Shown: positions 860 to 28,120 of the stretch, piece by piece
Layout: the number at the start of each line of letters is the position of its first letter
Numbering within the stretch: the first letter of the stretch is position 1
NCBI GenBank assembly: GCA_020717925.1
Contig: DYDL01000003.1
Span: forward strand, 1 to 41,870
DNA from: Desulfocapsa sp.
Lineage (GTDB): Bacteria > Desulfobacterota > Desulfobulbia > Desulfobulbales > CG2-30-60-27
DNA: 41,870 nucleotides
Direction: 5' to 3'
Program-made: the position numbers and the translations under genes
The notes under the pieces: model-generated
Told to the model about the DNA's origin: nothing
The model's input: the letters and a program-made list of their open reading frames with translations, nothing else
The model's database searches: none

Positions 860-2116
860 TCAACCAGGCCGCCTGACGATTTGATCCGCATGTGTGATTA
901 CTTTTTGGAACGCGCGCAAATATTGATCAAGCAATTCCTGCGAAGCCCAGGGGAACGAAGGCAATTTCATCATCGCACCATTCACCCTTTCCGTTACCGG
1001 TAGGGACACCGCAGAATAATCCGGCACTCTCGCACCATCCGTCGGTCGCATGATATCCAGGAATGCCCCTCCCGCAAAAAAAGGTTGTTGGTGTAGCAGC
1101 GGGTAACGAGGTAAAGCGGCTATACAGCCCTCAGCCTTGAGTGCCTCGATAAATGTGCCCATCGGCATGCCAATCGCTCCAAAATCGGGACGCACCAGAT
1201 ACTCGAAATAGACACGCTGAATATGCTCCGGTGACAGAAATGTGTGGATCCCCATCTCTTCCAAGCCGGCAGACAGGTACACAAGGTTGTGGTTGCGTTG
1301 CTTGTTGTTGTCCTCTAGCCTGGCTAGCTGATTGCGCGCAATTGCTGCCGAGAGGGGCGCAATACGCGTCTTGATGCCGAAACTGGTGGCGGCAAAACGT
1401 CGCGCAGGAGTCTCCAGTTCCATGATACGGGTGATATCGCCCAAGCAAACCGCGCGCTCCCAGTATTCATACTCCCTGCATAAAAACATACCGCCTTCGC
1501 CCGCCGGGGCGAGCTTGCCCCCTTGCAGACTGAACACTGAAATGTCTCCAAGGGTTCCGCATGGTTTACCGCGCCAGAGCGCACCTTGCGCATGCGATGC
1601 ATCTTCGATCATTTTGAGTTTGTACTTCCGTGCCAGCGCCGTGATCTCCGTCATTTTGGAGGGCAAGCCCCACAGGTGTACCACCACGATCGCTTTAGTG
1701 CGGGAGGTAATCTTTTTTTCCATGTCGGCCGGGTCGAGGCCCAGGCGTTCACTTTCGCTTTCGCAAAAGACTGGTACTGCACCAAGCCAGACCAGCGGCA
1801 GCACGGAGGCCCAAAAAGTTGCCGATGGCACCAATACCTCGTCGCCCGGTTTCAGTCCAATCGCCCAAAATGCCGCCGTCAGCGCGGTGGTGCCATTGCA
1901 ATGCGCCAGCACATAGGGCATACCGGAAAAATTACGGTAATCGTTTTCCAGTTCACGGATCACCGGATGCGTGGAAATGTCGCCATCCCGCATGATTTGC
2001 AGCACGGCCTTCTCGTCGTCCTCGGTGAGGACCGGCCAACGATTTGCCTCAACCTGATCCAAGGTGACCGCAGGCTGGCCGCCCAGGATTGCGGGCAAAT
2101 TAGTGCTGTAATTCAT
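860..2116 (-). CDS. DegT/DnrJ/EryC1/StrS PLP-dependent aminotransferase
   Basis: NGTTAL, VVHLWG, IEDASHAQG, FSLQGGK(PLP Lys)...GEGG motifs; AGGAG RBS. Confidence 0.92.
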   Translation of the reverse strand: MNYSTNLPAILGGQPAVTLDQVEANRWPVLTEDDEKAVLQIMRDGDISTHPVIRELENDYRNFSGMPYVLAHCNGTTALTAAFWAIGLKPGDEVLVPSATFWASVLPLVWLGAVPVFCESESERLGLDPADMEKKITSRTKAIVVVHLWGLPSKMTEITALARKYKLKMIEDASHAQGALWRGKPCGTLGDISVFSLQGGKLAPAGEGGMFLCREYEYWERAVCLGDITRIMELETPARRFAATSFGIKTRIAPLSAAIARNQLARLEDNNKQRNHNLVYLSAGLEEMGIHTFLSPEHIQRVYFEYLVRPDFGAIGMPMGTFIEALKAEGCIAALPRYPLLHQQPFFAGGAFLDIMRPTDGARVPDYSAVSLPVTERVNGAMMKLPSFPWASQELLDQYLRAFQKVITHADQIVRRPG

Positions 2117-2142
2117 GGCGGGGTTCTCCTTGATGTTATCAG

Positions 2143-3645
2143 TTAGTTGTTGGCCAGCAAGGCATCTAAATGGTCAATAACCTTCCTGCGGTATGTTTCA
2201 AATAGTTGTGCCGCCGACATAGGGTCGCCATGGGCAAGATCCAGGGCGATATTTTTCAAGGCCTGCGCATTGGCATCATTTCCTCCCAATCCACCTCTGG
2301 GAATCCACTGGGCGATATTGGTACGGCGCCGCAAATAATCTTCCAGTGTGCAGCATAACTCATGTTGCGCGCACCATGTCGCCGTAGGAACCTTTTGCGA
2401 CAGCCCTGGGAATTCCATCTGGGTCAAGGCGGCTTCCCAGGCGTCATCCGCTCCGTAGCTCTGTGCGGTGGCGCTAACGGCTTTATTGATCAGTTTTAAC
2501 GCCTTGGATGCCATGCGTGTGCAGCCGGTGATTTTCCCACCATAGCAGGAAATCCACGGCAGGGTTTTATGTTGGATCACCTCTTGACGGCGCGACAAAT
2601 CAAGCGGATAACAACTTTCCTGATATTGACTGTCGACCACCAGCGGGCGTATCCCGCAACGCACAGAGACGATATCCGCCCTGCTGATCGGCTCACGGAA
2701 CCTGCGCGCATAATGTTCCAATAAATAATCCACATCCTGTCTCGACGCCATCAGGCCTTCGCTAATATCCGGCACCGCCGTCTCGGTCGGGCCCCATAGT
2801 GAAATGGGTCCCCAAGGGACAAAGGTGACGACATCATCGTGCTCACCCAACTCGAAAAACAGCGATGCTTGATGTTGCTCGGCGCGGGGGATGCCCAAAT
2901 ACACACCCTTGCTGAATACGTGCCGAAATGGAGAATTAATTTCAAATGCCGCGTTAACCTGATCTGTCCATACGCCTGCGCAATTGACGATCATTTTCGC
3001 TCGCACCTGACAATGCCTGCCCGCAATTTCATCCTCTACATCAAGATGCCAGCTCTTGTCTTTGGCAGAAAAAACACCGCTGTGATTGCAATGATTCAGC
3101 ACCATCTGCCCCGCGCAACGATGCGGCGCCATCCAACGATACACAAAGCGTGCGTCGGAGTGTGCCAGAAAAGCTTCTTCATAGGTCAGCGAACCGTTTA
3201 CCAGCCCGGGCTTGAGCAGTTCCTTTTCAACAAAATGATTTTCCGATCGGGGGTGCCGTCTGCGCCCCATCCCCAGCATCCAGTATAGCCAAAGTCCGGA
3301 ATGCACCCACCATTTCGCGCGGCCGCTTCCAGAGGATGGCAGATAGCGCATCATCTCCGGTGCCAGCCATTGCGCCTTCTGCTGTATTAATTGATCGCGA
3401 GAAAAGGACAACTCAATAACAGAAGCGAGGTCAAGATTTCTCAGATACAGCAACCCGCCCCAGATCATCATGCCCGAGGACTGACTGGTGCCGGAAGAAA
3501 AATCGTTTTTTTCGAGCAGAAGCGTCTTGTATCCCTGTCGGCACAACGTGTCGTACAGGCAGGCGCCATTGATGCCACCGCCAAGCACGATTACATCAAA
3601 CTCATGCTCGTTCTGTATTCTTTCAAGTAATTGCCTGCGTTTCAA
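2143..3645 (-). CDS. FAD-dependent oxidoreductase, glycerol-3-phosphate dehydrogenase/oxidase (GlpD) family
   Basis: GGGING FAD motif, DFSSGTS, GGLLYL, NCAGVWTD, GIRPL, GGKIT, EDYLRRRT. Confidence 0.85.
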   Translation of the reverse strand: MKRRQLLERIQNEHEFDVIVLGGGINGACLYDTLCRQGYKTLLLEKNDFSSGTSQSSGMMIWGGLLYLRNLDLASVIELSFSRDQLIQQKAQWLAPEMMRYLPSSGSGRAKWWVHSGLWLYWMLGMGRRRHPRSENHFVEKELLKPGLVNGSLTYEEAFLAHSDARFVYRWMAPHRCAGQMVLNHCNHSGVFSAKDKSWHLDVEDEIAGRHCQVRAKMIVNCAGVWTDQVNAAFEINSPFRHVFSKGVYLGIPRAEQHQASLFFELGEHDDVVTFVPWGPISLWGPTETAVPDISEGLMASRQDVDYLLEHYARRFREPISRADIVSVRCGIRPLVVDSQYQESCYPLDLSRRQEVIQHKTLPWISCYGGKITGCTRMASKALKLINKAVSATAQSYGADDAWEAALTQMEFPGLSQKVPTATWCAQHELCCTLEDYLRRRTNIAQWIPRGGLGGNDANAQALKNIALDLAHGDPMSAAQLFETYRRKVIDHLDALLANN

Positions 3646-6106: not shown

Positions 6107-6592
6107 ATGGAGACATACGGCTGGAACGAGGCCATGGGCATGCGTCTGCTGGAGAAGTTGAAGGCTGATCTGAAGATTGCCATGCGGGCGCAGGATCAGG
6201 AGGCGAAGGATGGTATCCGCCAGGTCATGAGCGAGTTTTTCAAGCTCACCGTGCCCATTGTCCTGGAGAGCGGGAAGAAGAGCAGCCGGCCCAAGAGCGC
6301 CGAGGAGATCACCAACGACGACATCCTGGGCGTGATCGCCGGGCTGGTCAAGTCCGAGAAGATCATGCTGGAGGCGAAGAAGGCACCAAGCTCCCGCTAC
6401 CTGGAACTGTTGCTCTCCTATCTGCCGCGGACCGCCTCCCGGGAGGAGGTGGCGGCCTGGGTGCGGGCCAACATCGACCTGGCCCAGTTCAAGAACACCA
6501 TGCAGGCAATGGGGCCGATCATGAAGCATTTCGGCCAGGCGGCCGACGGCGCCGTGGTCCGGGAAGTCCTGCAGGAGTTAGCCGGCGCCTGA
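6107..6592 (+). CDS. GatB/YqeY domain protein
   Basis: LKADLKIAMR, YLP, MGPIMKHFG..ADG; AGGAGG RBS before ATG 6107. Confidence 0.8.
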   Translation: METYGWNEAMGMRLLEKLKADLKIAMRAQDQEAKDGIRQVMSEFFKLTVPIVLESGKKSSRPKSAEEITNDDILGVIAGLVKSEKIMLEAKKAPSSRYLELLLSYLPRTASREEVAAWVRANIDLAQFKNTMQAMGPIMKHFGQAADGAVVREVLQELAGA

Positions 6593-20754: not shown

Positions 20755-20930
20755 GTAACTTCTTCAGGTGGATAGCCTATAGCGGTTTAGCCTATTAGCA
20801 ACTGAAAAATCCCCGTCCGACAGCAGCGGATACTGAACAGATTACTAGATGAGGCACACTTTACACCCATATTCCCGGCCGTTTCTTGCTAGCAGACTAC
20901 AGTCTAACAGACTAACCAACCTGAGTATTT
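20755..20930. repeat. Imperfect palindromic intergenic element (CAGGTGGATAG / TTAGACTGTAGTCTG family), copy 1
   Basis: Left arm GTAACTTCTTCAGGTGGATAG...TAGC, right arm GCTAG...CTAACCAACCTGAGTATTT; 15-mer shared with copies at 29034 and 30449. Confidence 0.7.
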
Positions 20931-20990
20931 GAACTTCCAGCCTTATACCAAAGCAGGCGGCATTTGGGTAGGGGGATTCCGGCATTTGCC

Positions 20991-21269
20991 TCATGGCCAC
21001 CGCATCGCCCCATGCAGAACCCGGATAATTTCCAGGCATTCGCCCTGAACGCGATAAGGCAGAAGGTATGGCGTGCCGGCGATAATGAACTCGCGGGTAC
21101 CCGGGGTTCTACCTGGGCGCCCCAGGTGTGGCTGTATAATCAGATCTTTTTCCACCTTGGTGATGATTTTCCGCACCAGTTTTTTGGCGGCGCCTGGTTT
21201 GTCCTTGGCAATGAAGGCGCGTAGCGATTGGAGATCTGAAACCGCTTTTGCGGTCCACCTTACTTGCAC
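20991..21269 (-). CDS. RelE/ParE-family toxin
   Basis: VRWTAKAVSDL, PHLGRPG...GTRE, YRV..IIRVLHG. Confidence 0.9.
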   Translation of the reverse strand: MQVRWTAKAVSDLQSLRAFIAKDKPGAAKKLVRKIITKVEKDLIIQPHLGRPGRTPGTREFIIAGTPYLLPYRVQGECLEIIRVLHGAMRWP

Positions 21270-21523
21270 TTCGGCGGCCTCTTCTCCTGGGGGGTATCCC
21301 AACTCGCTACCCAGTCGGCAACTGCGGCATGCTCAATCAAACGGCCACTCCTCGCATCCTGCAGGCCATCTTCAATCGCCTGTAACTGCCAGGCCTCTTC
21401 CGCAACGTACCGCTTGACCGCCTCAGCGGCGCAAAAAGATTTCGACCGTTGGGTGGCCTCGGCGAGCATGGTGAGTTGTTGCGCCAGTTCATCGGGCAAG
21501 CGGATACTGATTGTCGCTGACAT
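21260..21523 (-). CDS. CopG/RHH-family antitoxin
   Basis: TISIRLPDEL...RSKS..AAEAVKRYV, W..SWDT; AGGAGG RBS; TGTATACA/TGCATACA boxes at 21535-21561. Confidence 0.88.
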   Translation of the reverse strand: MSATISIRLPDELAQQLTMLAEATQRSKSFCAAEAVKRYVAEEAWQLQAIEDGLQDARSGRLIEHAAVADWVASWDTPQEKRPPKCK

Positions 21524-21667
21524 ATGTCACCTCCTGTATACAACATAATACAATGCATACAAAAGTGCACAAAGAATAAGGCGGAGCCCGCACTGATAAT
21601 GCAAAAACCGTACAAATTGGCAATGCAAATAACAATCCGTGCCGTTTTCGCCTTGTCTTCTTGGCGC

Positions 21668-21704
21668 GTGAATACTCAGGTGGATAGATTTACTGAGCAG
21701 TTAC
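21668..21704. repeat. Compact palindromic element, copy 2
   Basis: GTGAATACTCAG-gtggatagattta-CTGAGCAGTTAC; TCAGGTGGATAG identical to 20764-20775; overlaps vapC stop. Confidence 0.65.
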
Positions 21705-22111
21705 CGTTTTTTATTACTGGCGAATTGCACCAGATTGACACCGCCTTCATCACGCAACACGGTGAAATGATTGTCCAGGGTCAATACCGGCAAGTCGTTG
21801 GCCCGGGCCACGGCGGCAATGTAGCAATCCGCCAGGCCAACGGTGCGGCCCTTGTTGCGCAGCCGGTTGGCGAGGCCCCCTGCGCTGACCCAATTCTCCA
21901 GACTTTCAGGAAGAAAATCAAATAAGTGCGGAAACCCGAGAAGGTGAGCCGCCTGCTTTTCACTCCTCACGCCTTGCAGCAGTTCAGCTAAAATCAAGCC
22001 AAGGCAGCAGATGCGGTCGTCGTCCAGCAGCGCCGAAACCAGGCCAAAGCACGGCTCTTCCCGCCGGAAATAGGCGATCCAGGCGGAGGTATCGACCAGC
22101 ACCCTACCCAA
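21701..22111 (-). CDS. vapC: VapC PIN-domain toxin
   Basis: VLVDTSAWI, ELLQG, DCYIAA, TLDNHF. Confidence 0.9.
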   Translation of the reverse strand: MGRVLVDTSAWIAYFRREEPCFGLVSALLDDDRICCLGLILAELLQGVRSEKQAAHLLGFPHLFDFLPESLENWVSAGGLANRLRNKGRTVGLADCYIAAVARANDLPVLTLDNHFTVLRDEGGVNLVQFASNKKR

Positions 22112-22313
22112 GCCGGTGGTCTCCGTGCCGAAGTTCCTCGGCGGATAAGGAGAATTCGATTTTGCCAGCCATGCCCTTAAGTTGTTCCTTTTTCATTTTG
22201 CGAATCTCGTCCCGGACCGCCAGGATAACCGCCTCGGTCTTGTTTTTTGCCTTCACGGCGGTCATGAGTTCCTGCACAAGATCCATCGGTAAAGTTATGC
22301 TTGTTCTTTGCAT
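22104..22313 (-). CDS. vapB: VapB-type (RHH) antitoxin
   Basis: RTSITLP..LV...KNKTEAV..A..G.IEF; overlaps toxin start. Confidence 0.8.
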   Translation of the reverse strand: MQRTSITLPMDLVQELMTAVKAKNKTEAVILAVRDEIRKMKKEQLKGMAGKIEFSLSAEELRHGDHRLG

Positions 22314-22457
22314 GGCTAGCCCCCATAAAAAAATCTCATAGCATATGATGGCTAGTCCATGCTAAAATGTCAACCAGTTTATAACACCAGTTTATAACGG
22401 TCGTATTGAGTTGCTTCGGATTTTATCCCGGCACGACCTTAGTAAAGGGCAGGCAAA

Positions 22458-23309
22458 TCAGGAGTGGGCGGCTTGCTGGCGTTTTTTGAGCTGTTCTTCA
22501 ATGTGGGGCCGCAAGAGCCGGAGGGTGGGCGGGGTGTAGGAGAGTTCATAGTCCTCGAATTGCGGAATTTTGGGCACGAACTCGGGCACCAGGGCTTTGA
22601 GGTCGGCGGGCGGCGCGCTATATTTACCGGTAAAGGCGGCAATGGCTTGCTGGATGGCAGCCGCTTGCTCAAACACGGCAAGGCTATTCTGATACCGTTC
22701 CCGTAGCGCGTCATCCTGTTCCGCTGCTACCATGCCACGTAGCCAGATCACCCCGACCTCGATATCGCCACCCTCGGCCGCCAAGGTGCTGGCCAGATGC
22801 CCAAACCAGCTTGGAGCTTCGGGCTTTTCCGAGGCAATCTTGAGAAAACGCGCGGCATTACCGAAATCGCTTAAGTGGTAGAAATAGTTGAAACCCGTGA
22901 AAAAAGGCCAAATGAAATTCTCCGGCATGGCATCCATGGCCTTGTTCAGTATACGGTTGGCTTCCCGCGCGTAATCTTGGCCAATAAAGGGCAGGCTGGA
23001 ATTGCAAATAAAATAAGTATCGACGAAACGAGGATGCAAGGTGGAGGCACCATCAAGATGTTGGGTAAGGCTCTCGGCATAGTCATAAGGGTCGCGGCCT
23101 GGCTTCACTCCGCCCAAAAATACGTTGGACTTGATGAAAAGCAGCTCGCCGCCCAACTGCTTCAAATATCCCAACGCCGTCTCCTGAATGCGCGAAGCCA
23201 ATGGAAAGGCCAGTTCCACCAGCCTTTCTTGAAATAGTTGTTCCTGATGGGAAAAAAGCCCCGCATAGGCTGCGAGCAGGCAAAGCAAAACCAACAAGTT
23301 GCGGATCAT
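22458..23309 (-). CDS. Membrane-anchored TPR-like pilus accessory protein (PilG/XapA-like)
   Basis: N-terminal TM, LHPRF, W..PFFTGFNYFY; ATGA overlap with permease; downstream of pilA ABC genes. Confidence 0.7.
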   Translation of the reverse strand: MIRNLLVLLCLLAAYAGLFSHQEQLFQERLVELAFPLASRIQETALGYLKQLGGELLFIKSNVFLGGVKPGRDPYDYAESLTQHLDGASTLHPRFVDTYFICNSSLPFIGQDYAREANRILNKAMDAMPENFIWPFFTGFNYFYHLSDFGNAARFLKIASEKPEAPSWFGHLASTLAAEGGDIEVGVIWLRGMVAAEQDDALRERYQNSLAVFEQAAAIQQAIAAFTGKYSAPPADLKALVPEFVPKIPQFEDYELSYTPPTLRLLRPHIEEQLKKRQQAAHS

Positions 23310-24133
23310 TGCAAATCCCGGCGCTGGTAGATTGTGGCGGCGAGCCATAGAGCTAGAACGGTATAGGCAGCGGCAAGGCCAAAGCCAGTGGCCAAGAGAT
23401 TTAAAGACGGCAACGCCTCTTCGACAGTGATAAAGTTCTTGAAATCCAGGCGGGCAAAATCCGGGAATACTGAGGTCAGCCCGGCCAAGAATTTGGCCAT
23501 CCCTGCCTGGCTATTCGACTCCGCCAGCTTTTGCGCCACCGACTCGCGCACCACCGGCAAGCCTGAGCAGATGGCGTAAAAGGAGAGCGAGACGAGCAGC
23601 ACCGGGAAGTTGCCGCGCACCAGGCCCGAAAAAAGCAGGATCACGGAAAGCAGCATGAGCTGCATGGCAAACATGCCTCCCCAGGCCAGCAGAAAGGCGC
23701 CAACAGATAGCTGCTCAAAATAGACAGGCTTAACCAGGCCCTTAATGATTGCAAGGGTGCCGAAGCCGATGCCGCCTAGCAGCAGATTGAGCAGCAGCAA
23801 GAGAAACGCGAGCCCCGCAAACACACCCAGCACATATTCGCCACGGGAGATAGGTCGTGCGATCAGTGAATAAATAACGCGGCGCTCCTCGTCCAAGGCC
23901 ATGACTTGCACGGCGTGGAAAAAAAGAAAAATAAAGCCGGTGAGCCAGGCAACGGAGATCACAAAATCGCTAGCCGCCCGGCCAATATCGCGGGAGATGA
24001 AGTCGAAGAACAACAAGCCTCCGGCCTCGGCGGCCAGGGCGAGTGCGATCAGGCCCAACAGAGCGTGACGGCGAAGGCCGTCGAGCACCAGGAGCCTGGC
24101 CAGGGCCGCGATGCGGCGCAATTTATCCGGCAT
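23306..24133 (-). CDS. ABC transporter permease (PilI-like)
   Basis: Multiple TM helices, EERR..Y.LIARPISR.EY..G, PDF..LDFK, QRRDL. Confidence 0.85.
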   Translation of the reverse strand: MPDKLRRIAALARLLVLDGLRRHALLGLIALALAAEAGGLLFFDFISRDIGRAASDFVISVAWLTGFIFLFFHAVQVMALDEERRVIYSLIARPISRGEYVLGVFAGLAFLLLLLNLLLGGIGFGTLAIIKGLVKPVYFEQLSVGAFLLAWGGMFAMQLMLLSVILLFSGLVRGNFPVLLVSLSFYAICSGLPVVRESVAQKLAESNSQAGMAKFLAGLTSVFPDFARLDFKNFITVEEALPSLNLLATGFGLAAAYTVLALWLAATIYQRRDLQ

Positions 24134-24869
24134 GGACGCTTCCTCCTTGAACCAGGCGCAGAAAACCATCGGCCAGGGTGGCGCTGCCGGTCTGGCCGCA
24201 GAGGGCGGAAGGGCTGCCCTCGAATATGCTCTGCCCTTGGTGCAGAAGCAACACCCGGTCGGCCACCCGGTCCACGTCTTCAAGAATGTGCGAACAGAAG
24301 AGGATGGAGCGGCCTTCTTGCTTTAACTCTTGAATAAGCGCCAGAATGTCGGCGCGGCCGATGGGATCGAGCCCGCTCATGGGCTCGTCCAGAATGAGCA
24401 GTTCTGGGTCGTGTAGAAGAGCAATGGCGAAGTTAGCCCGCTGCTGCATGCCCTTGGAAAAGTCGCGCAACGGCCGCCGCCTCGCCTCCCACAGGCTCAA
24501 GCGCTTAAGCCACTTCTCGCCGCTTGCGCTGATCGACTTGGCCGTCATCAGGCAGGTGGCGCCGGTATAGCGCAGCATGTCGAGCACCGTGAGGTTGGCC
24601 GGGAAGCTCGCGGTTTCCGGTAGATAGCCGATGCGGCGGCGCAGCAGATGGTCGCGTGGGGGCTGGCCAAAGACCTGGATGCTGCCCTTGTCTGGCCGGA
24701 TGAAGTCCATGAGCAGCTTGATGCTCGTGCTCTTGCCGGCGCCGTTTGCCCCGATTAACCCAAGGGTTTCGCCCTGCCCAACCGTGAACGAAACCTCCCG
24801 AAGGGCCGTGTGCGCCCGTCCGGTAAGCTCCTTGGCGTAAGTCTTCCAAACCTGTGAAAATTTAATCAT
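24123..24869 (-). CDS. ABC transporter ATP-binding protein (PilH-like), complete copy
   Basis: GANGAGKST, FSKGMQQR, LILDEPMSGLDP, CSH. Confidence 0.93.
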   Translation of the reverse strand: MIKFSQVWKTYAKELTGRAHTALREVSFTVGQGETLGLIGANGAGKSTSIKLLMDFIRPDKGSIQVFGQPPRDHLLRRRIGYLPETASFPANLTVLDMLRYTGATCLMTAKSISASGEKWLKRLSLWEARRRPLRDFSKGMQQRANFAIALLHDPELLILDEPMSGLDPIGRADILALIQELKQEGRSILFCSHILEDVDRVADRVLLLHQGQSIFEGSPSALCGQTGSATLADGFLRLVQGGSVHAG

Positions 24870-24898
24870 GGGGACGTTGTTTACCTAGTGATTTTAAT
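24870..24898 (+). repeat. RAYT-associated site A
   Basis: GGGGACGTTGTTTACCTAGTGATTTTAAT; 23/29 to site B; abuts ABC ATPase ATG. Confidence 0.8.
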
Positions 24899-24921
24899 AT
24901 TGCGCTCGGACCCCGAAAACC

Positions 24922-25341
24922 TTACAGCACCATGACTATACAACGGGCAAATCCCTCAAGATCGTTGAGGGATTCCCGGATCACCTGATGGACCAGATGA
25001 TAGTCTATTTTCCAATACATATGCACAAGCAGATTCCGGCAGCGGGCGGCCTTTTGCAGATTGGTGGACAGTTCCGCCGGAATCACCCCGGCCGATTCCA
25101 GCAGGGCAAAACATTGGGCATACTCTTCCGGAACTTGGCGCAACTGCTTGGCGCAGACATGATAGCAAAGTTGCAGGGAGGCCTCGATGGCAACCTGCAA
25201 TCGGTAACATGCTATGTCCAACGTATCCTGATCGGCAAGAAAAGCCTGAAGCGGCAACGTCTCGATCAGCCGCAGCCGGGCCACCGAATCGCTTATTTCC
25301 TGGGCGCGGGTCCGCACCAATTCCTGATTAAGCACCGGCAA
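24922..25341 (-). CDS. hepT: HEPN/DUF86 (HepT-like) ribonuclease toxin
   Basis: RNLLVHMY (RX4HXY) motif. Confidence 0.9.
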   Translation of the reverse strand: MPVLNQELVRTRAQEISDSVARLRLIETLPLQAFLADQDTLDIACYRLQVAIEASLQLCYHVCAKQLRQVPEEYAQCFALLESAGVIPAELSTNLQKAARCRNLLVHMYWKIDYHLVHQVIRESLNDLEGFARCIVMVL

Positions 25342-25735
25342 AGGCCTCCTTGGTAGCCCTCAGCAGCAGGGGCTTGAGGTCCAGATACCGGCAGACGGTC
25401 TGCTCGAAGATACGCCCGTGGAGATCAGAATTCCTATCCACTAGGAGTTTGCCACGCAACACCTGAAACACAAACGAAACCGGCGCGTTGTTCAGAGCCC
25501 GCGCATCCACCGGACACCCAATCTGCCTACTCAAGTGATCCGACAGGTCAACGGCGAACATCTCCATGGCTAGGGGGGAAAGCCCCTCAAGATACACGCC
25601 GATGTCAATGTCATGGAACGGAATCTCGTCTAGAAACGAGCCGTGCAGATAGGCGAATTGAATCGCCTCCCGCTCTTGCAGCAGACGGCTGAGGGTGTCG
25701 ATGATCTCGTGCCGTTCCTGAGAGGAAGTCATCAT
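25328..25735 (-). CDS. mntA: Minimal nucleotidyltransferase (MntA-like) antitoxin
   Basis: YLHGSF...DIDIGV motif; overlaps HEPN gene. Confidence 0.9.
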   Translation of the reverse strand: MMTSSQERHEIIDTLSRLLQEREAIQFAYLHGSFLDEIPFHDIDIGVYLEGLSPLAMEMFAVDLSDHLSRQIGCPVDARALNNAPVSFVFQVLRGKLLVDRNSDLHGRIFEQTVCRYLDLKPLLLRATKEAFAGA

Positions 25736-25736
25736 A

Positions 25737-25765
25737 GGGGGCTTTGTTTACTGAGTGAGTTCAAT
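25737..25765 (+). repeat. RAYT-associated site B
   Basis: GGGGGCTTTGTTTACTGAGTGAGTTCAAT; contains the RAYT stop codon; 1 nt from the MNT ATG. Confidence 0.75.
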
Positions 25766-26731
25766 GGCGCGTTCCAGTTTCTTCGCCAATCTTGGCTGTT
25801 CCATGAGTATGCCTGCCCCGCGCCGTGCCGCCCGGCTCACTGCCGCCCGGCCGAGGCGAAGCATCCCGCCCGCCGACGCACCGCCATACCCCAGCAACCA
25901 GATCGCGGCATGACAGAAAACCGCGCGCGCTTCCGAGACCGCGTTTTGCCTGCCTCGCAAGCCAAGCTCCTCGGGGCGCAAACCAAATAGCCCGGCAATC
26001 CGCGTGAGCAACTCCGGCAAAGGAAGCTTTCGATCGATTTGGGCGGCCAGGCCCTTTTTCCGGCTCAGTTGCTCAAGAAAATTTTCGCCGCCCAGCACTC
26101 GCCTGTCAACAATTTTCTCGAAAAATTCCTCCGCATCCCGAGGGGCACGTCCAACCAGTTCAGGACGCCGCCCCTCGGCAATACCGTCCGCCACATAGCT
26201 CAGGTAATTTACGCGGGCCGTGGCAGGACGCTTGCCAAAATGTTGAAGAATCTCGCTCACCGCTTGACCTGGCAAGGGGTCGTGGCCCACAAGCCCGGCA
26301 TGGCCGCACCAGGGATAAAGGCCGAGGGCATCCAAATCTGGCACTACCCCGGCGCGCAAGGGGTTCAGGTGAATGTAGCGCACCAGTTCCAGAAGGTAAG
26401 TTTCTTCATCACAGACAATGGACTTGTAGCGATTCTGAAACAGATGTCCAACGCGCTGATGGCGGCGGTTGAAGTTGACCGCGTACCGGGTGAGCAGTCG
26501 GCGCATGAATTGGCTGAGTGTTGCCTCGCAAGGCTGGACCAGCAGGTGAAAGTGGTTTGGGAGCAAGGCCCAGGCATAGCAAACGGTATTAGTCTCTTCA
26601 AGGGCTCTGGCTAGATATTGGCCAAAAAGCGCGTAGTCTTTCTTGCCAAGGAAAATCTTACGCTTTTCAATACCGCGCACCATAACGTGCTGCATGAGAC
26701 CAGGCATATCGAGGCGGGCTTTGCGTGGCAT
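25748..26731 (-). CDS. REP-associated tyrosine (Y1, HUH) transposase with C-terminal HTH
   Basis: MPRKAR, HVMVRG, PNHFHLL (HUH), GHLFQNRYKS, YIHLNP, YPWCGH; C-terminal HTH-like region. Confidence 0.92.
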   Translation of the reverse strand: MPRKARLDMPGLMQHVMVRGIEKRKIFLGKKDYALFGQYLARALEETNTVCYAWALLPNHFHLLVQPCEATLSQFMRRLLTRYAVNFNRRHQRVGHLFQNRYKSIVCDEETYLLELVRYIHLNPLRAGVVPDLDALGLYPWCGHAGLVGHDPLPGQAVSEILQHFGKRPATARVNYLSYVADGIAEGRRPELVGRAPRDAEEFFEKIVDRRVLGGENFLEQLSRKKGLAAQIDRKLPLPELLTRIAGLFGLRPEELGLRGRQNAVSEARAVFCHAAIWLLGYGGASAGGMLRLGRAAVSRAARRGAGILMEQPRLAKKLERAIELTQ

Positions 26732-26737
26732 GTGAAT

Positions 26738-26766
26738 AATTTAGCGAAAATGATCGGTAAAGTCAA
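26738..26766 (-). promoter_or_regulatory. sigma70 promoter for RAYT, probably leaderless
   Basis: TTGACT-N17-TAAATT-N6-ATG. Confidence 0.6.
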
Positions 26767-26790
26767 AGTAAATCAGTAAGCAACGTCCCC
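26762..26790 (-). repeat. RAYT-associated site C (inverted)
   Basis: Minus strand GGGGACGTTGCTTACTGATTTACTTTGAC; flanked by extra GGGACACCAC (26791-26800). Confidence 0.8.
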
Positions 26791-26800
26791 GTGGTGTCCC

Positions 26801-27316
26801 ACGGCCGATGGGATCCAGACCGCTCATGGGTTCGTCAAGAATTAGCAACTCCGGATCATGAAGCAGGGCTATGGCGAAGTTGGCGCGTTGCTGCATCCCT
26901 TTGGAGTAATCGCGCAGGGGGCGTTTCCTGGCCTCCCAGAGCCGCAGGCGGGTAAGCCAAACTTCCCCCTTTTCCCGGATATCCGGCACAGACATCTGGC
27001 AGGTGCTGCCAGTGAATCGCAGCATATCGAGCACGGTAAGGTTCGAGGGGAAATTGGCGGTTTCCGGCAGATAGCCGATTTGACGGCGTATGGCTGACCG
27101 GGCTGGGGTTTGCCCAAAGATGACGATAGAGCCTGCATCGGGGCGGATAAAATCCATGAGCAGCTTGATGGCTGTGCTCTTGCCCGCGCCATTGGCGCCG
27201 ATGAGGCCAAGGGTCTGCCCTTTGTCCAGGGAGAAGGAGACGTCGTGCAGAGCGGCAGGGGCGGCGAGAAAGAGTTCCTTGGTGTATCTCTTGCAGACGT
27301 TGTCAAACTGAATCAT
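26801..27316 (-). pseudogene. Truncated paralogue of the ABC ATP-binding protein (codons 1-172 only)
   Basis: 126/172 aa identical to 24123-24869, breaks after DPIGR at the element end, lacks H-loop; ORF reads on to 26741. Confidence 0.88.
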
Positions 27317-27342: not shown

Positions 27343-27387
27343 AAAAGAAAAGAGAAGAGGCGCCCTCTTACAGAAAGGCACCTCTTC
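27343..27387 (-). terminator. Rho-independent terminator after pilA
   Basis: GAAGAGGTGCCT...AGGGCGCCTCTTC hairpin followed by TCTTTTCTTTT. Confidence 0.75.
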
Positions 27388-27414: not shown

Positions 27415-28014
27415 TTATTTTACGACCCAAGCGGCAACAGCGCCGATATCGTCGGCGGCCGGGGAGTTAGCTGCCACAGAACCATTGAAGGCAACGATAG
27501 TCAGGGCGGTGGCCGTTGCAACGAGAGTCGGGTGCTGGTATATATTGGTAGTTTCTGCTTCGGTGGCGAATGTAGTGTTGCCATTCAGATGCTTTGCTGC
27601 GGCTTGATACGTCGTGGCGGGGGTAGCCGCAGCCGGTGCCAATGGAGCGCGGACAAAGAGAGTAACACCATTGCTAACGGAAACCACGGTCCCCCTATTA
27701 TTAGCATCTGCATCCACTGTGCCGAGACCATCACCGGCACTATTTCCGCCTGAGACTTCGACACCCACGGTGGGTGCAGCGGGAACGAAAGCTCCAGCGT
27801 TGGACTGAGATGTGCCGAAACGCTGCCAGTCGGCAACCAGCGCCGCTTGCGCGGTAACAGCATTCTTCAAATCGCTTAAAGACGCACTGTTGAAGCCACG
27901 AATCCGATACGCCGCAAACTGCGGAATGGCGATAGCCGCCAAAATACCGATGATCGCCACAACGATCATCAACTCAACCAGGGTAAAACCTTTTTCTTGC
28001 CGGTAAATCTTCAT
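27415..28014 (-). CDS. pilA: Type IVa major pilin (long, 199 aa precursor)
   Basis: KG/FTLVELMIVVAIIGILAAIAIPQF; GGAGG RBS; own terminator and sigma54 promoter. Confidence 0.92.
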   Translation of the reverse strand: MKIYRQEKGFTLVELMIVVAIIGILAAIAIPQFAAYRIRGFNSASLSDLKNAVTAQAALVADWQRFGTSQSNAGAFVPAAPTVGVEVSGGNSAGDGLGTVDADANNRGTVVSVSNGVTLFVRAPLAPAAATPATTYQAAAKHLNGNTTFATEAETTNIYQHPTLVATATALTIVAFNGSVAANSPAADDIGAVAAWVVK

Positions 28015-28120
28015 AATGTCTTCCTCCCTACCCTTAAATCTTGCTTGGGCAACATGCCCGCGAACCCCGTCCCCCAATTTGGTTCCATGGTATTTACAAA
28101 ATCGGTTTGGCATGTGCTTC

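Follow-up and report, generated by a model that had tools for sequence, protein, structure and literature searches.

A TIRtron of Desulfocapsa sp. with a toxin–antitoxin pair between two copies of its right end

The window studied here is a stretch of 41,870 nucleotides of Desulfocapsa sp. (GenBank assembly GCA_020717925.1, contig DYDL01000003.1, positions 1 to 41,870 of the forward strand), and the structure of interest lies between positions 24870 and 26790 of it. It contains the gene of an HUH transposase resembling the REP-associated tyrosine transposases (RAYT; REP, repetitive extragenic palindrome), an MNT-HEPN toxin–antitoxin (TA) pair and three copies, named A, B and C, of one site of about 29 nt. 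The sites C and A are read here as the terminal inverted repeats of a transposon of the TIRtron class, which captured the neighbouring MNT-HEPN pair between two copies of its right end; a probability of about 0.7 is given to this reading. The window genome (G000) is compared here with a sister genome of the same genus (G001).

Organization of the locus

All the genes of the region are on the minus strand and, in the direction of reading, the order is pilin-like gene, ABC' (a truncated ABC ATPase copy), C, transposase, B, MNT, HEPN, A, ABC ATPase and permease. The features are as follows (positions in the window, strand, description).

27415-28113, minus: gene of the upstream unit, which we take to be pilin-like from the N-terminal motif in its translation
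27354..27387, minus: terminator-like hairpin, a 14-pair stem and then a T run, 3' of the pilin-like gene and at the end of the upstream unit
26802..27316, minus: ABC', truncated ABC ATPase copy, codons 1-172; open reading frame (ORF) with intact frame and an ABC_tran match
26791..26801, minus: stutter just outside the left end, minus strand GTGGGACACCAC and then the start of the repeat; a partial extra terminal box
26762..26790, minus: site C, read as the left terminal inverted repeat (left end, LE) of the TIRtron, core GGGGACGTTGCTTAC; corresponds to the LE of G001
26738..26766, minus: putative promoter-like sequence TTGACT-17-TAAATT, overlapping the inner LE, 6 nt before the transposase ATG
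25748..26731, minus: TIRYT transposase, 327 amino acids, with an HUH/Y1 N-terminal domain and a DnaA domain IV-like C-terminal domain
25737..25765, plus: site B, inner right-end copy, GGGGGCTTTGTTTACTGAGTGAGTTCAAT; overlaps the transposase stop codon, box changed to GGGGGCT
25328..25735, minus: MNT, MntA-like nucleotidyltransferase antitoxin (Polbeta, 2.6e-13), read as captured cargo
24922..25341, minus: HEPN/HepT RNase toxin (HepT-like, 1.2e-27), likewise read as captured cargo
24870..24898, plus: site A, outer copy of the right end (RE), GGGGACGTTGTTTACCTAGTGATTTTAAT; abuts the ABC ATPase ATG
24123..24869, minus: full-length ABC ATPase, 82% amino-acid identity to the G001 gene
23306-24283, minus: permease gene after the ABC ATPase, of the ABC transporter operon
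20930..20990, minus: empty place within the TA island farther downstream; here G001 has MNT-HEPN on a G001-specific segment of ~1.09 kb

A direct count gave 14 identical positions out of 15 between the cores of A and C and 23 out of 29 between A and B. These values, the coordinates of the three sites and the location of the transposase stop codon within B agree with what had been noted in an earlier sequence-only reading of this DNA, as do the distances to the start codons, the MNT ATG being 1 nt past B and the ABC ATPase ATG 0 nt past A. Not noticed in that reading were the truncated ABC ATPase copy next to C, the existing description of elements bounded by such inverted repeats, and the empty and filled sites that G001 offers for comparison. 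The MNT and HEPN genes overlap by 14 nt. The MntA model scored 49.5 on the MNT protein, under its cut-off of 60, and the HepT_toxin model scored 107.3 on the HEPN protein, over its cut-off of 60; the arrangement that marks the type VII TA systems (MntA/HepT), a HepT toxin beside an MntA nucleotidyltransferase, is present. No terminator-like site was found on the coding strand between the transposase and the ABC gene. At the position matching the promoter-like sequence of the window the LE of G001 contains TTGACT-17-TAATTT.

The window belongs to a metagenome-assembled genome (MAG) of 513 contigs, and both the repeats and the paralogous ABC genes of the region invite mis-joins, so a chimeric contig had to be considered, together with a chance similarity of such short motifs. 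A Logan contig of run X1, the probable source sample of the genome, covers positions 22400-27028 with even depth and 0 differences, and the layout of the locus is therefore not an artefact of the MAG assembly. The same ends are found on the homologous element of G001 and of three metagenome contigs, and the motif statistics given below speak against chance; an artefact of either kind is very improbable.

The transposase and the class of the element

The transposase had been described from the sequence alone as an HUH/Y1, RAYT-like protein, and this description is correct. PF01797 (Y1_Tnp) matches it with an E value of 3.7e-11, its translation contains the motifs NHFH (59-62), LFQNRY and YIHLNP (119-124), and H60, H62 and Y119 are invariant across 14 homologues; NF047646 (REP_Tyr_transpos) scored 66.7, under its cut-off of 80. 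In a structure model built on the 14 homologues (pLDDT 85) the N-terminal domain was nearest to E. coli TnpA_REP (4er8, TMt 0.73), the ISDra2 and IS608 transposases being the other near folds, and the C-terminal domain was nearest to the DNA-bound domain IV of DnaA (3pvp_B, TMt 0.82; 1j1v_A, TMt 0.81). A Pfam search of the C-terminal domain gave no match, the domain being visible by its fold only. The ratio of nonsynonymous to synonymous substitution rates (dN/dS) of the transposase gene between the window genome and G001 is 0.21, which indicates purifying selection, and the catalytic residues are intact.

RAYT-like genes between long inverted repeats were named TIRtrons, and their enzymes TIRYT, by Di Nocera et al. 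(2013; PMC3733652), who gave GGGGWSAS as the consensus of the ends and described end copies as single, paired or clustered. Quentin et al. (2018; PMC6006769) equated TIRYT with TnpA_Y1 subclass 2.1, for which the motifs of their Table 1 match the window protein; in their survey subclass 2.1 is the second largest Y1 HUH group, found in ~15% of the strains, and it corresponds to RAYT Group 1 of Bertels et al. (2017; PMC5581495). The window element has two features of a TIRtron, namely a RAYT-type Y1 gene (HUH and Tyr) and flanking inverted repeats instead of REP hairpins. Its protein has those of subclass 2.1, that is the motifs NH[YF]H, FQ and Y[IV]HLNP and, as seen in the model, a C-terminal helix-turn-helix extension. 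The element is a TIRtron with a TIRYT transposase (TnpA_Y1 subclass 2.1; RAYT Group 1), a class already known, and its inverted repeats, of ~28 bp, start with GGGGACG. The earlier remark that terminal inverted repeats are missing from Y1 elements is outdated for this subclass (PMC3733652, PMC6006769).

Inverted repeats starting with GGG(G)AC or GGG(G)TC flank the homologues in 20 of 31 loci from relatives. A survey of genome contigs comprised 80 loci, of which 8 were at contig edges; such repeats were found in 55 of the 72 non-edge loci, the other 17 being without repeats in the narrow search windows. The repeats measure 13-33 nt; one lies ~20-60 nt ahead of the start codon and the other spans the stop codon.

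Other TIRYT paralogues of the window genome are located at G000:C296 67-1050 (44% identity), C230 18626-19543 (35% identity) and C446 2969-3148 (61% identity, a fragment); the one on C230 is bounded by 16-bp inverted repeats of its own, GGGTCGCGTCTACACC. A genome from a different family of the order (G007:C14; L057 5392-6108) has another, shorter Y1 transposase, of 238 amino acids, in the same gap between the pilin and ABC ATPase genes, and in G022 (L058), of the same genus as G007, nothing is inserted there. This gap, 3' of the pilin terminator, seems to be a recurrent target.

The terminal repeats

In the repeat search the sites A and B were recovered as the direct repeat D5 (38 nt, 74%) and A and C as the inverted repeat I2. 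The pattern GGGGRCKTTGYTTAC was built from the three site copies, and its exact matches are hence circular. In the window it gave 3 exact matches and 3 with two mismatches; in 100 shuffles of the window the mean was 0.57 matches at ≤2 mismatches, and the number of 6 was reached in 0 of them. In the whole genome of 3.52 Mb A, B and C are the sole exact matches and 3 more are found at one mismatch, the reversed control giving 1. With a 28-nt consensus of the subfamily and ≤8 mismatches allowed, A, B and C were the only matches in the window (reversed control 0). The mismatches to this consensus number 1/28 for A, 6/28 for B and 6/28 for C, two of those of B falling in the terminal box GGGGACG, and the core of A is identical at 15/15 positions to both ends of the G001 element. 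The sites A, B and C exceed chance, the circularity of the pattern being kept in mind as a caveat.

The pattern was also compared with 401 genomes of the order. G000 and G001 alone had more than one exact match to it, and 10 others had one each; the reversed control pattern likewise gives scattered single matches across these genomes. A genome-wide REP-like family was rejected, as there are three copies only in the genome.

The sites A and B form no significant hairpin (folding z-scores from -0.02 to 0.61). Hairpin-type ends, of the IS200/IS605 or REP kind, were rejected for A and B by these values, and the ends of the window element are unlike those of IS200/IS605 or REP because A and B do not fold in this manner. 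The sole significant hairpin is situated outside C and consists of 6 bp formed by the end of ABC' and the stutter (z-score -3.86 on the plus strand and -1.75 on the minus strand).

The terminal box of the window, GGGGACGT, is replaced by GGGGTCAG/A in a sister clade of homologues. Many ends are composed of a GGGGAC(G) box and two tandem sub-repeats of ~9 nt, which are putative binding sites for the DnaA-like domain. In 14 of 91 ends another GGGAC occurs 4-34 nt outside; the counts at control distances were 1, 3 and 3 (of 91) on the outer side and 1 and 3 (of 93) on the inner side. The units of this stutter consist of a few outside bases and the first 5-8 bases of the end, in tandem (L067, L073, L079), and the same type was recognized at the left end of G001, in L145 and L146 and at site C of the window. 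Repeated cuts at the GGGGAC box, each followed by rejoining, may have left the stutter as a scar. Stutter ends also include L088, L131, L056 (about 6540-6577) and positions 26791-26801 of the window.

Site A was also considered as the remnant of the 3' end of a second transposase gene; this was dropped, the ~28-nt repeat itself encoding the last codons and the similarity beyond it being weak.

The sister genome and the probable capture of MNT-HEPN

In G001 the order is pilin, LE GGGGACGTTGTTTAC, transposase (70% amino-acid identity), RE, 15 nt containing AGGAG, and ABC ATPase. The element has perfect 15-bp inverted repeats, and the pilin-ABC locus contains neither MNT-HEPN nor ABC'. The synonymous divergence (dS) between the window and G001 is 0.99 for the transposase gene and 1.01 for the ABC gene, and because the two values are equal the element was probably present at the pilin-ABC site before the species split. 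The terminal 15 nt are kept at 14-15/15 positions against a DNA divergence of 28% in the transposase gene.

The orthologous MNT-HEPN pair of G001 is on contig C56 (HEPN, 76% amino-acid identity; 75.8% nucleotide identity over 789 nt). By blastn, positions 416-847 of L164 (G001:C56) correspond to 21425-20990 of the window and 2015-3414 to 20726-19327; the G001 pair stands between these two blocks, within the TA island that follows the ABC operon and at an estimated ~4 kb from the right end. The window is without the G001-specific segment of ~1.09 kb, the place of which is directly after the stop codon of a ParE-like gene. The in-element module has acquired a new start, ATGATG; its homology to G001 sets in ~10 nt past B and ends ~20 nt after the HEPN stop codon, at the same right boundary as the G001-specific segment. 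The captured MNT is without ~8 N-terminal codons and the upstream region of ~280 nt, and has no promoter of its own. In the outgroup G015 a homologous module (59%) is free-standing and has the long N-terminus. Around the G001 module and the G015 homologue no site-like sequences were found.

It is concluded from this comparison of sequences that the MNT-HEPN pair probably moved into the element in the window lineage, with a duplication of the right end. The sequence-only reading had offered such an element, bounded by terminal inverted repeats and capturing a TA module by duplication of its 3' end, as its alternative, and the sister genome bears this out. Site A is the better-kept copy of the right end; B lost the GGGGACG box and still supplies the stop codon of the transposase. 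The exteriors of B and A share ATGAT, which hints that a few outside bases were duplicated along with the end.

A close kinship of the window pair with the site-adjacent MNT-HEPN pair of L150 was rejected, the identity being 31% per protein. In the TA island of the window (20990-22313, minus), which varies between species, a PIN gene at 21701-22111 (block about 21425-22097) has no counterpart in G001.

In a rival explanation the sites would be no more than inert relics and the transposase would be domesticated or have lost its activity; TA islands would be recombination hot spots in general, where solo end copies of 28-92 bp provide short homologies for ordinary recombination or replication slippage between neighbouring TA modules. 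The empty place of the window is bounded in G001 by the direct repeat CCGGAGAAATC / CCGGAATCCCC, as would fit a slippage deletion, and the element has kept one locus since the species split, with a single subfamily copy per genome; RAYT-type genes are in fact usually single-copy and vertically inherited (PMC5581495). The purifying selection on the transposase with its intact catalytic residues, the conservation of the terminal 15 nt relative to the gene and the concentration of stutters at the outer edge of the ends are all difficult to reconcile with inert sequences. The TA island adjacent to mutL differs among G000:C453, G001:C16 and L160, the G000 version being without a site, and in E. coli the REPtron locus is taken by hicAB in other strains (PMC3333891), both of which suit this explanation. 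Bare end copies between TA modules, described below, are hard to obtain by deletion alone. Inert relics are, on balance, unlikely.

The left side of the element

The protein of ABC' has 73% identity with that of the full copy, and the same value was obtained with G001. ABC' and the full copy form the repeats D1/D2, with a spacing of 2447, and ABC' is cut at codon 172, where the left end of the element begins past the 11-nt stutter. A decayed tandem duplicate was rejected, the dN/dS between ABC' and the full copy being 0.10 and the frame intact; for the same two reasons ABC' diverged as a working gene. To judge from its sequence, it is a piece of a once-functional, fairly distant homologue, probably foreign or recombinant in origin.

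From the middle of the pilin gene to the left end the window has no counterpart in G001, and the outside junctions of both ends of the element differ from those of G001. A recombination replacing the left flank up to the element would explain the mismatch on that side. ABC' may have originated by recombination with a donor carrying the element inside its ABC gene, by Campbell-type entry of a circle bearing a gene fragment, or by import of the downstream operon; the identities to G001 do not separate these three options.

Extra end copies in other TIRYT loci

A search with 22-nt end cores, allowing ≤5 mismatches, found extra end copies in 17 of 55 loci (34 extra matches; reversed controls 0). 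The extra copies are partly in tandem, 22-90 nt apart, and partly arranged as small inverted pairs. In L112 nothing lies between the end copies, and in L076, L086, L124 and partly L066 the extra copies are followed by transposase fragments. Other contents not related to TA are an ankyrin gene in L089 (weak site), a DUF4143 ATPase in L084 and ~4 kb of other genes in L092 (weak site). Besides the window, four loci have TA modules between direct end copies, in the following order of elements.

L071: site, BrnT/BrnA-like, site, RHH/PemK, LE, transposase, RE
L030: site, CcdA/CcdB, LE
L066: LE and 5' transposase fragment, HigB-like, DUF4258/MqsA-like, LE and full gene
L081: Phd/PIN between two direct sites of ~55 nt belonging to another GGGACG subfamily, not the end of the adjacent gene itself

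In L071 the TA modules lie between three near-identical LE copies; the four 25-nt copies of this locus differ at 0-1 positions, and the similarity stops at the edges of the copies. In a control set of 10 simple TIRtrons 2 of 20 flanking ORFs were TA-like, both in one locus. The enrichment of TA modules between direct copies is only suggestive because there are few loci and their selection depended on the very feature that was counted. The genes are in sense orientation relative to the site in L071 and L030 and antisense in the window and in L154.

Some other arrangements were observed in these loci. Genes for AAA_14/DUF4143-type ATPases stand between or beside end copies in L084 (4253-5404), L119 (6906-8048) and L157 (1756-2865). 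L094 (7915-10560) contains two full elements in tandem, and in L124 (4971-9040) one full and two partial transposase copies are piled up, with a left end before each.

Site arrays in metagenome contigs

The 25-nt site pattern was found in 19 metagenome contigs, 6 with a transposase match and 13 without. One of the contigs, L154, has an array of five direct site copies within 5.9 kb, and TA genes occupy each of the 4 intervals, which contain, in order:

first interval: PIN
second interval: MNT and a cut HEPN, DUF4160/DUF2442, YafQ-like toxin
third interval: ParE, antitoxin and a fragment of an ISL3 transposase
fourth interval: PIN

At 3 of the 5 sites of L154 the ATG of an antitoxin lies 11-24 nt outside the GGGG end, as start codons do at B and A in the window. 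No TIRYT gene was found near the array within ~2 kb on the left or 6.7 kb on the right, overlapping contigs included. A 92-nt unit of L154, made of the site and a piece of the cut HEPN gene, is identical at two sites, and contigs related to the array are L145, L149, L150, L152, L153, L155 and L162.

The comparison with variant contigs from other samples showed that L160 is homologous to L144, L148 and G001:C16 from 5 nt outside the site; it has a MazE/ParE-like pair where the others have BrnT/BrnA-like genes, and a tandem partial site. L145 and L154 become homologous 11 nt outside the site. Some end copies between TA modules are bare, without any element sequence next to them. In G001 a solo site (L060, G001:C16 792-818) is placed beside mutL, with a BrnT/BrnA-like pair on one side and, on the other, a HigB-like gene truncated at its 5' end together with HigA; the mutL-adjacent island of the window genome (G000:C453) has different TA genes and no site.

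Excision products were sought in the contigs of runs X1-X3 aligned to the window. No A-B or B-C joint was present in them, which says nothing on rare circles; four other joints appeared (skips of 84-685 nt, depth 3-7.6) and were short pieces of other organisms or of paralogues. None of the X3 contigs aligned, and X2 gave a few short identical pieces.

The arrays bear on the proposal of an integron-like cassette system based on an HUH enzyme, in which each end copy is a recombination site. TIRYT would cut the same strand at two direct sites, free the site and the TA genes as a single-stranded circle and paste it at another site; promoterless TA cassettes would in this way accumulate in arrays, either next to the transposase gene or away from it. 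The Y1 enzymes of IS608 and ISDra2 do act on sites of one strand. The five sites of L154, the TA modules next to TIRYT genes in L071, L030, L066 and L081, the variant contigs that share a site and one flank and break 5 nt or 11 nt outside it, and the low TA content (2/20) around simple TIRtrons are consistent with such a system. It is less easily reconciled with the absence of a linked TIRYT gene from the surroundings of L154, the inconstant orientation of genes relative to the site, the non-TA content between direct copies in L076, L086, L124, L084, L089 and L092, and the lack of a circle or deletion joint in the contigs, the only material examined for them; the few loci, found by the counted feature, weaken the enrichment itself. 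The outermost copies form the best inverted pair in L071 and in the window, and because of this the two loci fit a transposon with passengers. The cassette of the window, moreover, came from a site-free locus by an imprecise 5' cut inside the MNT gene and was not a pre-formed, site-bearing cassette. As an account of the window, the cassette system is possible but rather improbable.

The integron-like platform put forward in the sequence-only reading is unsupported for the window, with its single cassette originating 4 kb away, imprecise 5' cut and site-free source, and keeps partial support from other loci, where TA modules between direct copies recur. An ATG at +0/+1 of the site is not general: the distance is 15 nt in G001, and the genes of L071 and L030 run the other way. 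It is tempting to speculate that TIRYT ends may be sites of an HUH gene-cassette system specialised for TA modules, in which units of a site and its TA genes would be cut on one strand at GGGGAC^G and joined to other site copies, with arrays (five sites in L154, three in L071) beside the transposase or served in trans, though this is a tentative and somewhat doubtful extension; with similar reserve, the window could then be regarded as its simplest case, one cassette deep.

Proposed mechanism and its weak points

In the preferred reading, a TIRtron with captured cargo, the present mobile unit would be C...A, of 1.9 kb, with the TA pair as an addictive, stabilising passenger. The transposase, MNT, HEPN and the ABC operon would be expressed as one transcript, from the promoter-like site of the left end or from upstream. 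The DnaA-domain-IV-like fold of the C-terminal domain would bind the two ~9-nt sub-repeats of each end as duplex DNA and so bring the HUH/Y1 domain into position for a nick at GGGGAC^G or beside it. Joining at the nick, if aberrant or repeated, could then give rise to end stutters, duplicated ends and the uptake of nearby DNA.

Several points weigh against this reading. The nick position, the DNA binding of the C-terminal domain and the co-transcription are inferences, and the promoter scan gave 2 matches against a shuffle mean of 1.3, and is thus not above shuffles. The terminal box GGGGACGT matches the published GGGGWSAS at 6/8 positions. A and B differ at 6/29 positions, and for this reason they represent an old duplication or had separate origins. 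No copy of the C...A unit was found elsewhere in the genome by the pattern and consensus searches, and movement of the composite is thus unsupported. The source locus in G001 is without any site, which leaves the route of transfer unexplained. The proposed direction of the move rests on one outgroup of 59% identity and on the truncated N-terminus, and the distance of ~4 kb assumes that the G001 contigs C90 and C56 adjoin, as deduced from synteny with the window. Finally, ABC' requires a second event, which is beyond reconstruction here.

Comparison with known systems

With the TIRtrons and TIRYT enzymes described so far (PMC3733652) the window element shares the RAYT-like Y1 gene, the long inverted repeats, the GGGG-box ends and the extra end copies; it differs in its box, GGGGACGT, and in that the extra direct end copy encloses a captured TA module. 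The motifs, the long C-terminal DnaA_C-like helix-turn-helix extension and the low copy number agree with subclass 2.1 (PMC6006769) and RAYT Group 1 (PMC5581495), which is common in delta-proteobacterial lineages, but the window protein has 327 amino acids compared to the subclass median of 238, and no Pfam C-terminal domain. The REPtron (4er8; PMC3333891) is similar in the fold of the catalytic domain, the single-copy gene, the flanking inverted cognate repeats and a locus shared with a TA pair (hicAB). Unlike a REPtron, the window has neither REP-like hairpins at A and B nor a high-copy repeat family, and the element does not belong there.

The Y1 HUH fold is common to the IS200/IS605 elements (IS608, ISDra2), from which single-strand cleavage and joining is the expected chemistry. 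In those elements the hairpins are subterminal, terminal inverted repeats are lacking, and the transposases, of ~150 amino acids, are without a helix-turn-helix; the window element has inverted repeats, no hairpins and a protein of 327 amino acids with a DNA-binding-like domain, and is not of the IS200/IS605 type. The IS91/ISCR/Helitron elements have HUH enzymes of the two-tyrosine (Y2) Rep type, dissimilar ori and ter ends and no inverted repeats. What the window has in common with them is an HUH enzyme, adjacent DNA captured at the ends and truncated genes abutting an end.

In chromosomal integron arrays direct sites separate small, often promoterless units, many of which are TA modules. The likeness consists in the direct site repeats between small TA units, with the recombinase gene at one end in some loci. 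Units bounded by direct site copies number one in the window and two in L071, L154 having four intervals; variants break at the edges of the sites, and no mobility product was seen in the contigs examined. The differences are that the window has no attC-like fold, the sites are transposon ends, the gene orientation is unfixed and the cassette derives from a site-free locus. IntI, attI and attC are absent from the structure, in which the sole recombinase-type gene is that of the Y1 HUH transposase, the rest of the window not having been scanned for IntI.

TA capture, arrays of direct ends between TA modules and end stutter go unmentioned in the portion of the TIRtron/TIRYT text that was searched. 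In the literature search on Y1 transposases with TA passengers nothing relevant appeared besides the E. coli hicAB case (PMC3333891), and no published account of the function of subclass 2.1/TIRYT was found in the literature searches.

Conclusions

The locus is an ordinary-looking small transposon of a poorly understood family, with a clear record of gene capture, and it provides a lead towards a cassette-like role of the ends. The window and G001 together form a clean before/after pair of an element taking up a neighbouring TA module, and the related loci indicate that the pattern of capture is not unique to the window. This suggests one route by which TA modules move within TA islands and ride on small transposons. 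If the cassette system were real, it would represent a second, mechanistically unrelated integron-like invention, with the single-strand chemistry of HUH enzymes, and would give a function to the large, uncharacterised family of RAYT Group 1 / subclass 2.1.

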